Shown here: one piece after another, positions 1-6,726 of the stretch
How positions within the stretch are numbered: position 1 is the stretch's first letter
Layout of the letters: the number at the start of each line of letters is the position of its first letter
Origin: a virus
Lineage: Duplodnaviria; Heunggongvirae; Uroviricota; Caudoviricetes
Strand: one strand, 5' to 3'
Length of the DNA: 6,726 nt
IMG/VR virus record: IMGVR_UViG_2534682087_000016
Location: 1-6,726 of that record
Made by a program: the position numbers and the translations under genes
The notes under the pieces: generated by a model
What the model saw: only the letters and a program-made list of their open reading frames with translations
The model's database searches: none
What the model was told of the DNA's origin: nothing

Positions 1-1410
<1,410 letters not shown>

Positions 1411-1427
1411 ATTTTATAACCCATAAC

Positions 1428-1452
1428 GGGCGTCAGAAATGACGCCTTTTTT
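1428..1452 (+). terminator. Rho-independent terminator downstream of J
   Basis: Perfect 7-bp stem GGCGTCA (1429-1435) / TGACGCC (1440-1446) with GAAA loop, followed directly by TTTTTT (1447-1452). Lies 18 nt after the J stop. Confidence 0.6.
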
Positions 1453-1465
1453 ATTGCAGAAAAGC

Positions 1466-1471
1466 GAGAGG
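1466..1471 (+). promoter_or_regulatory. Ribosome binding site for lom
   Basis: GAGAGG, 5 nt upstream of the ATG at 1477. Confidence 0.5.
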
Positions 1472-1476
1472 TAATT

Positions 1477-2074
1477 ATGCGTAAACTTTATGCCGCCATT
1501 TTGTCCGCAGCCATTTGTCTGGCCGTATCCGGTGCGCCTGCATGGGCGTCTGAACATCAGTCCACGCTGAGCGCGGGGTATCTTCATGCCTCGACGAACG
1601 TTCCCGGCAGCGATGATCTGAACGGGATTAACGTGAAATACCGTTATGAGTTTACGGACACACTGGGGATGGTGACGTCTTCAGCTATGCAGGAGACAAG
1701 AATCGCCAGTACCCGTTACAGCGATACCCGCTGGCATGAAGATTCCGTCGTAACCGCTGGTTCAGCGTATGGCGGGGCCGTCTGTGCGCGTGAATGAATG
1801 GTTCAGCGCGTATGCGATGGCGGGTGTGGCTTACAGCCGTGTGTCGACTTTCTCCGGGGATTATCTTCGCGTAACTGACAACAAGGGGAAAACGCACGAT
1901 GTACTGACCGGAAGTGATGACGGTCGCCACAGCAACACGTCTCTGGCGTGGGGGGCTGGCGTGCAGTTTAACCCGACCGAATCCGTGACCATTGACCTTG
2001 CTTATGAAGGTTCCGGTAGTGGCGACTGGCGATCGGATGCATTTATTGTTGGTATCGGATACCGTTTCTGACAA
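1477..2074 (+). pseudogene. lom: Lom outer-membrane protein (Ail/Lom/OmpX/PagC beta-barrel family), reading frame disrupted
   Basis: Start MRKLYAAILSAAICLAVSGAPAWA is a signal peptide. The gene is split between ORF 1477..1797 (frame 1) and ORF 1769..2071 (frame 2). By hand, the Lom-like sequence hops frames four times between ~1679 and ~1770: frame 1 …LGMVTS, frame 3 FSYAGDKNRQ (1680-1709), frame 1 TRYSDTRWHEDSV (1711-1749), frame 3 RNRWFSV (1749-1769), frame 2 MAGPSVRVNEWF… to the stop at 2072-2074. The second half (…GVAYSRVSTFSGDYLRVTDNKGKTHDVLTGSDDGRHSNTSLAWGAGVQFNPTE…GYRF) matches lambda Lom as I remember it. Confidence 0.75.
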
Positions 2075-2176
2075 CAGACGCCGATTTATCTTCTGTAAAT
2101 ATTGTTATGATACGCAGGTTCATCCACCTTATGGGGTGAACTGCGTTTGAGGAAACGTAAAGTTACACTGTCCTGA

Positions 2177-2208
2177 AGCCCGTGGCGTCACTGCTGCGGG
2201 CTTTTTTT
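2177..2208 (+). terminator. Rho-independent terminator between lom and stf
   Basis: Stem AAGCCCGTGGC (2177-2187) pairs with GCTGCGGGCTT (2192-2202), including three G-U pairs, around a 4-nt loop TCAC; a run of seven T (2202-2208) follows. Confidence 0.5.
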
Positions 2209-2211
2209 ATT

Positions 2212-2217
2212 GGTGGA
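2212..2217 (+). promoter_or_regulatory. Ribosome binding site for stf
   Basis: GGTGGA, 5-6 nt upstream of the ATG at 2223. Confidence 0.4.
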
Positions 2218-2567
2218 AAAGTATGACAGTAAAAATTTCTGGCGTGCTTAAAGATGGCACAGGAAAACCAGTACAGAACTGCACCATTGTGCTGAAGGCC
2301 AGACGAACCAGCAGCACGGTGGTGGTGAACACGGTGGCCTCTGAAAATCCGGATGAAGCCGGACGTTACAGCATGGATGTTGAGCATGGTCAGTACAGCG
2401 TCACCCTGCTGGTTGAAGGTTTTCCGCCTTCACATGCCGGGACCATTACCGTCTATGAAGGTTCCAGACCAGGTACGCTGAATGATTTTCTCGGTGCCAT
2501 GACGGAGGATGATGTCCGACCGGAGGCACTGCGCCGCTTTGAGCAGATGGTGGAAGAAGTGTCACGT

Positions 2568-3600
2568 AACGCCTCCGCGGTTGCACAGAATACGGCAGCC
2601 GCGAAAAAATCAGCCAGCGATGCCAGTGCATCAGCCAGCGAGGCGGTAACTCATGCAACCGATGCTGCAGCCTCAGCACGTGCCGCCAGCACGTCAGCCG
2701 GACAGGCCGCGTCGTCGGCTCAGTCAGCGTCTTCCAGCGCAGGAACGGCATCAACAAAGGCCAGTGAAGCATCGAAAAGTGCTGCTGCTGCAGAGTCCTC
2801 AAAAAGCGCGGCAGCTACCAGTGCCGCTGCGGCGAAAACGTCAGAAACGAATGCGGCAGCGTCACAACAATCAGCAGCCACTTCTGCATCCGCCGCGACC
2901 ACGAAGGCGTCAGAAGCAGCCACCTCAGCCCGGGATGCGGCGGCCTCAAAAGAGGCAGCGAAATCATCAGAAACGAACGCATCATCAAGCGCCAGTAGTG
3001 CCGCTTCCTCGGCAACGGCGGCAGGCAATTCCGCGAAGGCGGCAAAGACGTCTGAGACAAACGCCAGGTCTTCTGAAACGGCAGCGGGACAGAGCGCCTC
3101 AGCTGCGGCAGACTCAAAAACAGCGGCTGCATTATCTGCCAGTGCCGCGTCAACAAGTGCCGGGCAGGCCTCAGCCAGTGCCACCGCCGCCGGAAAATCG
3201 GCAGAAAGTGCTGCATCGTCTGCTTCAACAGCCACAACGAAGGCTGGCGAAGCCGCTGTACAGGCCAGCGCAGCAGCGAGGTCTGCTTCCGCAGCGAAGA
3301 CATCCGAGACGAACGCGAAAGCGTCGGAAACCAGCGCAGAATCCTCAAAAACGGCTGCCGCATCGTCCGCCAGTTCGGCGGCGTCATCGGCATCATCTGC
3401 GTCTGCTTCAAAAGATGAGGCGACCAGACAGGCGTCAGCAGCAAGGGAGCGCCACGACGGCATCCACGAAGGCGACAGAGGCAGCTGGCAGTGCGACGGC
3501 GCAGCTCAGAGCAAAAGTACGGCGGAATCGCGCAACGCGCGCTGAGACAGCGGCAAAACGGGCAGAGGATATTGCATCCGCCGTGGCGCTTGAGGATGCG
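2568..3600 (+). repeat. Low-complexity Ala/Ser/Thr/Lys/Glu-rich region of the Stf shaft, with reiterated AAKTSETNA-type motifs
   Basis: About 340 codons made almost only of A, S, T, K, E, G, Q and N. AAK(T/S)SETNA occurs four times, ASTSAGQA twice, and TTKA(S/G)EAA twice. The GCN-rich coding leaves other frames on both strands open, which generates the spurious ORFs here. Confidence 0.6.
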
Positions 3601-3603
3601 AGC

Positions 3604-3830
3604 ACGACGAAAAAGGGGATAGTACAGCTCAGCAGTGCGACCAACAGCACTTCCGAGTCACTGGCGGCAACGCCAAAAGCCGTTAAGGCCGCGTATGACC
3701 TGGCTAACGGGAAATACACCGCACAGGATGCAACGACAGCACAGAAAGGGATAATCCAGCTAAGCAGCGCGACCAACAGCACGTCTGAAACGCTTGCCGC
3801 GACACCAAAGGCAGTAAAAGCAGCCAATGA
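3604..3830 (+). repeat. Tandem duplication of a ~38-residue tail-fibre repeat
   Basis: [38 protein letters not shown] is followed by [38 protein letters not shown]; the two DNA copies are roughly three-quarters identical. Confidence 0.6.
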
Positions 3831-4804
3831 CAATGCTGAGAAACGTCTGCAGAAAGATCAGAACGGTGCGGATATCCCTGGCAAAGATACCTTTACGAAA
3901 AATATTGGTGCCTGCCGTGCCTTCGGTGGGTCAGTAAGCACAACAACAGGAAACTGGACGACTGCACAGTTTATCGAGTGGCTGGATTCTCAGGGAGCAT
4001 TTAACCATCCATACTGGATGTGCAAGGGTTCCTGGTCTTATGGCAATAATAAAATCATTACTGATACTGACTGCGGTAATATTCATCTCGCCGGAGCTGT
4101 CATTGAAGTAATGGGGATAAAGTCAGCGATGACGATCCGCATTACCACACCGACCACCTCCACTGGTGGTGGAACAACTAACGCCCAGTTTACCTATATT
4201 AATCACGGAACAGATTATTCACCTGGCTGGCGAAGGGACTATAACTCCAGAAATAAGCCAACGGCATCAGAGATCGGGGCGTTACCGTCAGGTGGAACAG
4301 CAGTATCATCAGTTAATCTGGCTTCAAAAGGTCGGGTAACCGCGCTGACAGACAATACGCAGGGGGCAGCAGGTCTTGAGTTATACGAGGTGTATAACAA
4401 CGGATATCCAACAGCGTATGGAAATATCATTCACCTGAAAGGGATGACAGCCGTTGGCGAAGGTGAGTTACTCATCGGCTGGAGTGGTACAAGCGGTGCT
4501 CATGCTCCGGCATTTATTCGTTCACGACGGGATACGACCGACGCAAACTGGTCGCCGTGGGCGCAGCTTTACACCTCGGCTCATCCTCCTGCAGAGTTTT
4601 ATCCAGTCGGTGCACCAATCCCGTGGCCATCAGATACCGTTCCGTCTGGTTATGCCCTGATGCAGGGGCAGACTTTTGACAAATCTGCATACCCGAAACT
4701 TGCAGTTGCTTATCCGTCAGGCGTGATCCCTGATATGCGTGGCTGGACGATTAAGGGCAAGCCCGCCAGTGGTCGGGCCGTATTATCTCAGGAACAGGAC
4801 GGCA

Positions 4805-5220
4805 TTAAATCGCACACCCACAGCGCCAGCGCATCCAGTACGGATTTGGGGACGAAAACCACATCGTCGTTTGATTACGGAACCAAATCCACGAATAACA
4901 CCGGGGCGCATACCCATAGTATTAGCGGGACCGCAAATAGTGCCGGTGCGCACCAACACAAGAGTTCCGGTGCATTTGGTGGCACGAACACGAGCATTTT
5001 CCCTAATGGTTATACCGCGATTTCAAATCTAAGCGCGGGGATTATGAGCACAACAAGCGGTAGTGGCCAGACTCGTAATGCAGGGAAGACATCATCAGAT
5101 GGTGCTCATACCCACTCGCTGTCCGGCACTGCTGCAAGCGCAGGCGCACATGCACATACTGTCGGTATTGGTGCTCATACGCACTCCGTTGCGATTGGTT
5201 CACATGGACACACCATCACC
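4805..5220 (+). repeat. His-x-His repeat region of the Stf distal tip
   Basis: Repeated motifs [73 protein letters not shown]. Interspersed HxH motifs are characteristic of the C-terminal domain shared by lambda Stf and T4 gp37. Confidence 0.6.
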
Positions 5221-5277
5221 GTTAACGCTGCTGGTAACGCGGAAAACACCGTCAAAAACATCGCATTTAACTATATT

Positions 5278-5283
5278 GTGAGG
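5278..5283 (+). promoter_or_regulatory. Ribosome binding site for tfa, inside the 3' end of stf
   Basis: GTGAGG, 8 nt upstream of the tfa ATG at 5292. The stf stop TAA (5290-5292) shares one base with that ATG (TAATG). Confidence 0.5.
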
Positions 5284-5291
5284 CTTGCATA

Positions 5292-5876
5292 ATGGCATTC
5301 AGAATAAGTGAACAACCACGGACCATAAAAATTTATAATCTGCTGTCCGGAACTAATGAATTTATTGGTGAAGGTGATGCATATATTCCGCCTCATACAG
5401 GTCTGCCAGCAAACAGTACCGACATTGCACCGCCAGATATTCCAGCTGGCTTCGTGGCTGTTTTCAACAGTGATGAGTTATCGTGGCATCTCGTTGAAGA
5501 TCATCGGGGTAAAACGGTTTATGACGTGGCTTCCGGCGACGCGTTATTTATTTCTGAACTCGGCTCATTACCGGAAAATGTCACCTGGTTATCCCCGGAA
5601 GGGGAGTTTCAGAAGTGGAACGGCACAGCCTGGGTGAAAGATGCAGAAGCAGAAAAACTATTCCGGATCCGGGAGGCGGAAGAAACAAAAAACAGCCTGA
5701 TGCAGGTAGCCAGTGAGCATATTGCGCCACTTCAGGATGCTGTAGATCTGGAAATCGCAACGGAGGAAGAAACCTCATTGCTGGAAGTCTGGAAAAAGTA
5801 TCGGGTGTTGCTGAACCGTGTTGATACATCAACTGCACCGGATATTGAATGGCCAACAGGACCCATTATCGAATAG
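5292..5876 (+). CDS. tfa: Tail fibre assembly protein Tfa (194 aa)
   Basis: Intact [65 protein letters not shown]… is near-identical to lambda Tfa as I remember it, with the same length. It sits directly downstream of stf and is translationally coupled to it. Confidence 0.92.
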
Positions 5877-5949: not shown

Positions 5950-6726
5950 TTATTTTGAGTGAGTTATCACCTTGTTCTTTCCGGTTCTTTTGGCTTGATA
6001 TAACGCTTTATCGGCATTGACTAACATTTCAGATGGACTGAGATTATTCTCTTTTGAAGTAAAACAACCAATACTGACGGTTATTTTCTCAGGTCCATGC
6101 GATAATAATTTTTTCGAGCATTGCTCTTCAATGTTTTTTCTGATTCGCTCTGCAATTGATAGCAAGAGCTTTTGAGTATTACCTTTAATGATAATACCGA
6201 ACTCCTCACCGCCTAAGCGCCCTAATATATCCTCTTTCCTGATGGATTTTTTTATTATTCTGGTAACCATTACTATGACTTGATCACCCATATGATGCCC
6301 CCATTTGTCATTGATGCTTTTGAAATTGTCAATATCTAACATTATTACTGAGAAATCATGGTGTTTTGATATATTCTTCAATGAGTCAATAAAGTATCTT
6401 CTATTGTATGTATTCGTTAGTGGATCATGAATTGCCATATGATTAGCATGATTTAATTTCCTGAAAACATAATACATGAGTGTTGAAATGATATAAATCA
6501 TTGATATCAATTCAAGAAATTTTGTCATGTACCATGCAGGATGGGATTTATCAATAAAATACAATAAAATTAGGTTATTGCATACTGACACTATACTAAT
6601 AAGTATTATACACAACCATATTTTTGAGTAATTACGTATGCTGATGCATGAGCTGATAAGTAATACAAGCCAAAATACTGATATTATTTTGGTGTACACG
6701 ATATTCCACGTCGACAAATGACGATT
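5950..6726 (-). CDS. Membrane-anchored diguanylate cyclase (GGDEF domain, GGEEF active site, RxxD I-site); N-terminus beyond the window
   Basis: The - strand ORF ends at the TAA at 5950-5952. The GGDEF domain motifs are all present: HDPLTNTYNRRYF, LDIDNFKSIND, GHHMGDQV, RLGGEEF (nt 6199-6219), TVSIGC, ADKALYQAKRTGKN. RKED lies 5 residues upstream of GGEEF. The N-terminal ~90 residues in the window are hydrophobic with at least three predicted transmembrane helices. The track's start at 6717 is a TTG codon and the frame stays open to 6726, so the gene is 5'-truncated by the window. GC is about 30%. Confidence 0.85.
   Translation of the reverse strand, partial: NRHLSTWNIVYTKIISVFWLVLLISSCISIRNYSKIWLCIILISIVSVCNNLILLYFIDKSHPAWYMTKFLELISMIYIISTLMYYVFRKLNHANHMAIHDPLTNTYNRRYFIDSLKNISKHHDFSVIMLDIDNFKSINDKWGHHMGDQVIVMVTRIIKKSIRKEDILGRLGGEEFGIIIKGNTQKLLLSIAERIRKNIEEQCSKKLLSHGPEKITVSIGCFTSKENNLSPSEMLVNADKALYQAKRTGKNKVITHSK

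Follow-up and report, generated by a model that had tools for sequence, protein, structure and literature searches.

A stem-loop in the lom-stf spacer of a lambdoid prophage is probably the decayed copy of a duplicated spacer unit

The window, by which we mean the whole 6,726-nucleotide stretch of DNA analysed here, covers the right-hand end of a Rac-like lambdoid prophage. J, of which the window holds the 3' end, runs to position 1410 and is followed directly by an intrinsic terminator (1428-1447; an 8-pair stem and then T6), which lies upstream of lom, a frameshifted gene for an Ail/Lom outer-membrane protein (1477-2071, plus strand). A spacer of 151 nt (2072-2222) separates lom from the side tail fibre gene stf (2223-5292, plus strand), which is also frameshifted and whose start codon is located 14 nt past the stem of a further terminator; tfa follows (5292-5876). 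The GGDEF diguanylate cyclase gene that adjoins tfa (5950-6717, minus strand) belongs to the host flank, and ybhB is next to this GGDEF gene in the closest relative of the window, marking the prophage-chromosome junction. With the clean terminator at 1428-1447 on one side and the terminator in the lom-stf spacer on the other, lom is bracketed by terminators in the manner of a classical moron.

Both frameshifted genes contain clusters of small deletions. The lom gene is 595 nt long and differs from that of the closest overall relative of the window, E. coli 30EVA1 (L141; 95% identity), by losses of 1 nt at 1679, 2 nt at 1709, 1 nt at 1747 and 1 nt at 1768, all within 90 nt, which split it into ORFs 1477-1797 and 1769-2071; the frameshift reflects either decay of the prophage, with lom now a pseudogene, or an error in sequencing. 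In stf the deletions (2 nt at 3447, 1 nt at 3500 and 2 nt at 3529) sum to a net -5, as they do in lom, and result in overlapping ORFs 2223-3545 and 2653-5292; it is odd that two genes have the same pattern of clustered 1-2-nt deletions. Long alternative frames are open over the Ala/Ser-rich repetitive part of stf (2650-3550), for example a minus-strand frame of 247 aa at 2720-3463, and these are most likely a compositional artefact.

An imperfect stem-loop at 2113-2145, followed by TTTG, had been noted within the lom-stf spacer in a first-pass annotation of this DNA, and the structure is present. It has the form CGCAGGTTCATCCACC-TTAT-GGGGTGAACTGCG (in whole, CGCAGGTTCATCCACCTTATGGGGTGAACTGCG), with CGCAG and CUGCG forming the lower stem and UUCAUCC and GGGUGAA the upper stem, and has an RNA minimum free energy of -15.9 kcal/mol (ViennaRNA), compared with a mean of -6.65 (sd 2.1) for shuffled sequences; this corresponds to a z of -4.40, and none of 200 shuffles is equally stable. 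The stem had been described as about 13 bp with three single-base bulges, and this register, with its TTAT loop, is an alternative for the apical part of the hairpin, but at minimum energy the stem is made up of 12 pairs with a single bulge, at G2118, and closes on a loop of 8 nt; the apical part is ambiguous between the two. Within the upper part of the hairpin (2118-2141) the arms GTTCAT and GTGAAC are invariant or nearly so, and the apical positions 2124-2136 are variable.

The second structure in the spacer is the intrinsic terminator downstream of lom (2175-2211, plus strand), which has a 13-pair stem (2175-2204) followed by T7 and pair probabilities of about 1.0. The hairpin and the terminator both form within the full spacer with pair probabilities of 0.83-1.0, in agreement with the earlier description of two structured elements in a spacer of about 150 nt; the exception is the pair 2117-2141 (0.46), which alternates with the G2118 register. 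Between the two structures is the linker UUUGAGGAAACGUAAAGUUACACUGUCCUGA (2146-2176), which is conserved and predicted to be mostly single-stranded. The hairpin thus folds better than shuffled controls and, as described below, is conserved in position, and together these properties argue against dismissing it.

The hairpin is not itself a terminator, since the stem is followed only by TTTG; the tail is TTTGAGGA, and the U-tract required of an intrinsic terminator (at least 5 T in 8) is absent. A scan with a terminator consensus likewise calls the stem at 2175-2204 and not the one at 2113-2145. Classical RNase III sites need about 20 bp or more of near-continuous double-stranded RNA, and a stem of 12-13 pairs with 1-3 bulges falls short of this.

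The first-pass annotation had raised the possibility of an attenuator. In such a mechanism the hairpin would compete with or control the downstream terminator to regulate stf. The two structures do lie in a leader-like position upstream of stf, and CGCAG (2113-2117) could pair with CUGCG in the right arm of the terminator, but the terminator forms with a probability of about 1.0 and the hairpin folds independently of it, and the best fold in which the terminator left arm pairs upstream is about 11 kcal/mol worse (-37.9 versus -48.7 kcal/mol) and leaves the hairpin intact. Nor is there a conserved leader peptide, the 10-codon ORF with an ATG at 2108 being absent from other lineages by inspection; no small ORF in the spacer is conserved. 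Searching window positions 1400-2700 against Rfam gave matches at chance level only (the best at 20 bits, against a gathering threshold of 59) and no leader or riboswitch. Because both folds form with probabilities of 0.8-1.0 and the best anti-terminator is so much less stable, we reject attenuation, which is very improbable.

We then consider the distribution of the spacer. Matches are present in 1650 of 5426 complete E. coli genomes (about 30%; 1654 records), mostly at identities of at least 99%, and in five phage records. Those that were listed and inspected are positioned between an Ail/Lom gene and a prophage tail-fibre gene, except in degraded prophages, and every inspected locus is at the lom/J-stf junction. 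Compared with lambda there are 89 additional nt (2072-2160); a query of this segment is matched at 1970 places in the 1650 genomes, with a median of one per genome, and this segment is never found alone, the best match covering at least 80% of the query in 1654 of 1654 records. Confinement to lom-stf, at a median of one copy per genome, shows that the element is not a dispersed repeat of the REP/BIME, ERIC or MITE type. None of the matches listed for the 1650 genomes has an annotation of the element as such. In a scan of species-representative genomes, a 20-mer taken from the spacer matched E. albertii only, and a metagenome scan for homologues returned no match. The spacers of Sakai Sp9 (1798916-1799066, plus strand; this copy was located in Sp9 through its nleA context) and of EPEC E2348/69 PP6 (NC_011601, 1470637-1470787, plus strand) are 100% identical to that of the window.

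Only two spacer alleles, of 151 nt and 64 nt, were found among IMG/VR relatives of this stf N-terminus; scans of IMG/VR for alleles other than the common one yielded no new lineages, and a search for an allele with both terminators intact found none. The 64-nt spacer lacks the hairpin and is present in lambda, K-12 Rac, Sakai Sp8, Sp14 and Sp15, and E. coli 30EVA1. When the window is aligned with 30EVA1 by blastn, positions 2-2061 match at 95.6% and 2196-4952 at 94.4%, with nothing aligned between them, and from this gap we conclude that 2062-2195 (plus strand) is a discrete 134-nt cassette that replaces 51 nt and distinguishes the 151-nt allele from the lambda/Rac-type spacer. The cassette is dispensable, given that lambda, Rac, Sp8, Sp14, Sp15 and the closest relative all have the 64-nt spacer.

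Several individual copies of the locus have further features. In one (L058, ~6340-7010, the same as L149) an IS200-type tnpA element is situated right after the T-run of the lom-stf terminator, splitting the terminator from stf. In a defective prophage (L050, 7932-8855) a deletion fuses an E-like major capsid gene in frame to the last lom codons (...YRF*), and the 151-nt spacer is intact. A decayed prophage (L137, 1480-1640) contains a J fragment and no lom, and its stf start codon is changed from ATG to ATT; the diverged spacer includes a perfect TGCTATAAT, and the apical changes A2126G and G2134C in the hairpin permit a re-registered G-C pair.

Comparison with the shorter allele suggests where the hairpin came from. 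MAFFT pairs the lambda-type terminator and stf ribosome site with the hairpin region of the window, and positions 2094-2140 (GTAAATATTGTTATGATACGCAGGTTCATCCACCTTATGGGGTGAA) are collinear with the Rac/lambda spacer (GTAACACAGTGTTATGACAGCCCGCCGGTTCAGGCGGGCTTTTTTGTGGGGTGAA) at z = 6.1-7.2, with 0 of 5000 dinucleotide shuffles scoring as well. Positions 2141-2240 are collinear in turn with the end of Rac lom, the spacer and the start of stf (z = 8.4; 0 of 3000 shuffles), and the alignment of this second unit starts with GTT-TGA against the last lom codons, GTTCTGA. By these alignments, the 151-nt spacer appears to consist of two tandem diverged copies of a unit that is single in lambda, Rac and many lambdoid prophages.

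The upstream unit (2094-2140, plus strand) is a decayed copy of the lambda/Rac-type spacer according to the collinear local alignment, with which the MAFFT pairing agrees. It retains the linker with TGTTATGA and, from the terminator, the loop together with the left arm (CGCnGGTTCA) and part of the T-run; TGGGGTGAA, formerly the Shine-Dalgarno sequence of stf, is also preserved. Its left arm and loop, CGCAGGTTCA, align with CGCCGGTTCA of the lambda/Rac terminator, and the right arm and T-run have been lost; the hairpin therefore has the homology to the lambda/Rac lom terminator (z = 6-7) that descent from a terminator predicts. The downstream unit (2144-2222, plus strand) is the functional copy, with a relic of the lom stop (CGTTTGA), the linker, the terminator and the stf ribosome-binding site. 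A direct alignment of the two units within the window is not significant, and we infer the duplication from the separate homology of each unit to the lambda/Rac unit; the duplication may be old, or may have joined two different alleles.

The single-unit spacers themselves differ little from each other. The lom terminators of lambda (L008, 1087-1150) and of the Rac type (L010, 4986-5049) have GGAACCGGTGGGC versus GGTTCAGGCGGGC as their sole difference, and both still form the stem; the 27-nt linker is 100% identical between lambda and Rac, and the 3' end of lom is only 70% identical.

The single unit thus contains the last lom codons, a linker of about 27 nt, an intrinsic terminator and the stf Shine-Dalgarno sequence. 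The downstream copy in the window (2144-2222) has retained a working terminator and ribosome site, and the upstream copy (~2094-2143) the old left arm and loop, with loss of the right arm and U-tract. GTTCA of the old loop now pairs with TGAAC of the former stf Shine-Dalgarno region (GGGGTGAAC), giving rise to the imperfect hairpin at 2113-2145. The hairpin is thus probably what remains of the first of two copies of the lom-stf unit, and it lies within a 134-nt cassette that is dimorphic among lambdoid prophages. The first-pass annotation had suggested a degenerate repeat remnant, and this is supported insofar as the upstream member of a tandem spacer duplication, homologous to the lambda/Rac unit, has decayed, but not in the sense of a dispersed repeat.

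Descent from a terminator is compatible with several present-day roles, and we examined whether the helix or the surrounding block is under selection. Twelve natural hairpin variants, representing about 5 lineages, all fold, with energies of -9.1 to -17.4 kcal/mol. However, of the 12 hairpin pairs none is changed on both sides, 3 have one-sided compatible changes and 4 are disrupted, a comparison that has low power with about 5 lineages; across the 12 variants the share of cells that pair, 88.7%, does not exceed that in the shuffle control, and random mutants given as many substitutions as the natural variants keep their folding energy equally well (fractions 0.06-0.56). In the lower stem, the left arm (2113-2117) is disrupted by C2113A, G2114A and G2117T, and CTGCG in the right arm is invariant. 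There is no positive evidence of selection on the helix itself, at low power, and the conservation in related prophages that had been put forward as a check is seen in position and sequence but not in compensatory changes.

At the level of sequence, positions 2118-2208 are 90-100% identical between lineages whose lom genes are 48-83% identical and whose stf 5' ends are 52-71% identical. By block, identity is 100% in the left upper arm (2118-2123), 89-100% in the right arm (2137-2145), and 88-100% in the terminator; it falls to 50-92% in 2072-2117, in the apical loop and around the ribosome site of stf. For the linker (2146-2176) the values are 97-100% where its flanks are 50-70% identical, and 81% in L137, the decayed prophage. 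The P-EibA lineage matches at 72 of 72 positions in 2137-2208 and differs at about 20% of sites in 2072-2136. Differences within the 2118-2208 island are mainly in loops, the terminator loop differing between lineages with its arms kept, and variation is concentrated in loops and in 2112-2117.

Retention of the arms and linker with variation in the loops is the pattern expected of a constrained RNA, and counts against a neutral fossil. Such a fossil should diverge like its surroundings, and since 2118-2208 does not, the interpretation of the hairpin as a passive fossil is weakened; phage operons are compact, and it would also be somewhat unexpected for about 30% of E. coli to carry a non-functional insert of 87 nt in one. 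The conservation could also be due to gene conversion acting locally, or to a recent spread of the cassette, and we note that in the lambda-type spacer, too, conservation exceeds that of lom (94% versus 70%, lambda versus Rac).

The last comparison also speaks for a role at the level of DNA, either as a homologous-recombination joint for exchange of lom and stf alleles or as an inverted-repeat site for protein binding. The cassette occurs with at least 3-4 different lom alleles and with different stf 5' ends, as a joint of this kind would, but a crossover joint explains the conservation only if exchange is frequent and recent, and the island is just ~90 nt long and stops right at the terminator. 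An inverted repeat, GTTCA...TGAAC, is present, and to our knowledge the hairpin contains no recognisable operator motif and no convincing match to a DNA invertase site (gix/hix-like). We regard DNA-level roles as quite improbable.

A cis-acting role in the late transcript is also unlikely. After readthrough by Q-modified polymerase, the hairpin, linker and terminator stem would form a structured leader that directs cleavage between lom and stf or stabilises the stf-tfa message. In favour of this, the region is conserved at the sequence level, lies directly upstream of stf and has its A/U-rich linker between two stable stem-loops, as RNase E entry sites typically do. Nonetheless, the same stf family is expressed without the hairpin in phages whose spacer is 64 nt long, the stem is too short and too bulged for RNase III, and pairing between the spacer and the stf Shine-Dalgarno sequence does not co-vary, by inspection, in the P-EibA lineage, whose ribosome-binding site differs. 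The linker side of the spacer (2141-2176) can also pair with the lom translation-initiation region (1447-1496) at -21.1 kcal/mol, which 0.5-1.5% of shuffled seeds equal; the signal is absent with the EH53-type lom allele, and we gave this pairing no weight.

Another interpretation of the conserved island is that 2118-2211 is an unannotated prophage small-RNA gene of about 93 nt, which we view as possible but doubtful. Transcription would be directed by an extended -10 element (TGnTATGAT, 2103-2111) and start near G2118, and the RNA would have a protective 5' stem-loop, the linker (2146-2176) as a candidate seed, and the terminator (2177-2211) with its U-tail, although this particular layout is no more than tentative. 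In a variant of the proposal, an RNA of about 65 nt would arise by processing of the lom 3' UTR immediately downstream of the hairpin. The left edge of the 2118-2208 island is sharp and lies 7 nt past the -10-like hexamer, its right edge is the end of the U-tract, its loops vary with the arms and linker kept, and the cassette moves as a unit between prophage backbones. The fold predicted from 2118 consists of a 5' hairpin, a small hairpin, an unpaired stretch and the terminator; a 3' terminator with T7 after a conserved single-stranded stretch is also characteristic of PasB/EcOnc-type RNAs, and the same prophage family has a validated RNA of this type, PasB/EcOnc22-24, in its I-J spacer.

The evidence for a promoter is mixed. 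The extended -10-like motif is TGTTATGAT in the window (2103-2111, plus strand) and TGTTATAAT, TGGTATAAT and TGCTATAAT in three other lineages, in which TG and TATAAT are kept and the intervening base is T, G or C. But the commonest allele has the weaker TATGAT, one lineage has lost the motif (TGCAATGTA), and there is no match to a -35 element upstream. Nine one-mismatch matches to the motif occur in the window against 5.2 expected, which is not above chance. The lambda-type spacer carries the homologous TGTTATGAC, so that the -10-like TGTTATGA is inherited from it and need not be a promoter.

Published RNA surveys and target predictions also weigh against a small RNA. The locus is absent from the 64 orphan peaks of Sakai Hfq-CRAC, even though the Sp9 spacer is identical, a weak negative in that orphan calling may skip 3' UTRs, and no PP6 lom-stf entry is present among the EPEC RIL-seq entries listed, also a weak negative, where PasB from the same prophage has 37 partners. 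In EPEC cultures lom and stf are almost silent, with base means of ~2-7. Within the window, the linker pairs with targets no better than shuffled seeds do and no target stands out, and there is no match in Rfam or in the literature; a full-text literature search for the sequence itself gave no match, and the Sakai locus tags gave nothing useful. If the island is nevertheless a small-RNA gene, it may have arisen by exaptation, with the old linker supplying the extended -10, the old terminator loop and old stf Shine-Dalgarno sequence the 5' stem-loop, and the second copy the seed and terminator, and 2118-2211 would then be an undescribed gene, though we think this rather unlikely. The putative RNA, whose existence we doubt to a similar degree, would be carried by about 30% of E. 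coli, including O157:H7 Sp9, EPEC PP6 and ST131, and would be either not Hfq-associated or expressed only under unsampled conditions.

The reading that we favour, although with less than even confidence, is that the hairpin is a passive stem-loop in the lom 3' UTR, with transcription ending constitutively at 2177-2211 in the lysogenic state and Q-modified polymerase reading through when the phage grows lytically. Expression of lom in lysogens has been reported, and morons carry their own promoter and terminator (PMC7067206, PMC3594210). As the hairpin has no U-tract, lom moron transcripts in lysogens would pass through it and end constitutively at 2177-2211; the hairpin would act at most as a pause site or a barrier to 3' exonucleases, and would not switch the terminator. 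During lytic growth, Q-modified polymerase would cross both structures into stf.

If the hairpin is only a fossil, it provides a small example of illegitimate recombination at module joints that leaves duplicated regulatory DNA in lambdoid prophages, and the decay of a terminator into a harmless 3'-UTR hairpin would be ordinary; it would also caution annotators that a stable, 'conserved' hairpin may lack function. If 2118-2211 is expressed, the E. coli accessory regulome would gain a prophage small RNA that is widespread (O157:H7, EPEC, ST131), and its gene would be a case in which duplication of a unit of terminator and ribosome site gave rise to a small RNA de novo. Unless expression is shown, the element is ordinary.

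Several known phage RNAs were compared with the lom-stf element. HnrS/EcOnc10-12 was rejected as a match because HnrS is a 66-nt RNA from a different locus that is restricted to EHEC and EPEC. The non-coding RNA 24B_1 of the Stx phage phi24B, described as lying 'between lom and vb_24B_43' (PMC4426718), is of microRNA size and is likewise downstream of a phage lom, but it is encoded on the opposite strand, the spacer that holds it measures 428 nt and belongs to a short-tailed phage, and it has no terminator; the best blastn-short match to it is 15 nt (E = 0.07), and this identification was rejected too.

PasB/EcOnc22-24, a small RNA that lambdoid prophages encode and that depends on Hfq (Pearl Mizrahi 2021, PMC8550237; Tree 2014, PMC4104026; Zhu 2026 preprint), resembles the lom-stf element in several respects. 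Its gene occupies a spacer within the tail operon in the same family of prophages (EPEC PP6); the RNA is about 83 nt long, has a 5' stem-loop, a conserved single-stranded stretch and a terminator, and is widespread in pathogenic and extraintestinal E. coli. Its description fitted the lom-stf element, but its coordinates place it elsewhere, in the I-J spacer and on the other strand, antisense to tail genes, and we therefore rejected identity of the two; comparison by eye revealed no convincing sequence similarity between them. PasB (= EcOnc22/23/24) is found at 2762-2844 on the minus strand of L132 and at ~10644-10705 of L135, just upstream of the region corresponding to the window. PasB has been detected experimentally and is Hfq-dependent, whereas the lom-stf element is known from sequence alone.

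The architecture of phage morons (PMC3594210), which comprise a promoter, a gene and a terminator of their own, has its parallel in the window, where lom is likewise flanked by terminators (1428-1447 and 2175-2211). The cassette resembles a moron in being an add-on segment that is missing from related phages, but unlike a moron its extra 87 nt encode no protein, and it derives from a duplicated neighbouring spacer and not from an import of foreign DNA. The closest counterpart is the lom-stf terminator of lambda (19586-19649) and of the K-12 Rac lomR-stfR spacer, which occupies the same position between lom and stf and to which each unit of the window is homologous. Lambda and Rac have one unit of 64 nt, and the window has two in tandem, in 151 nt. 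In the upstream unit of the window the right arm and U-tract are gone and the old loop is predicted to pair with the old Shine-Dalgarno sequence instead; the downstream unit is like that of lambda and Rac, with an intrinsic terminator of the working type followed by the stf ribosome site.
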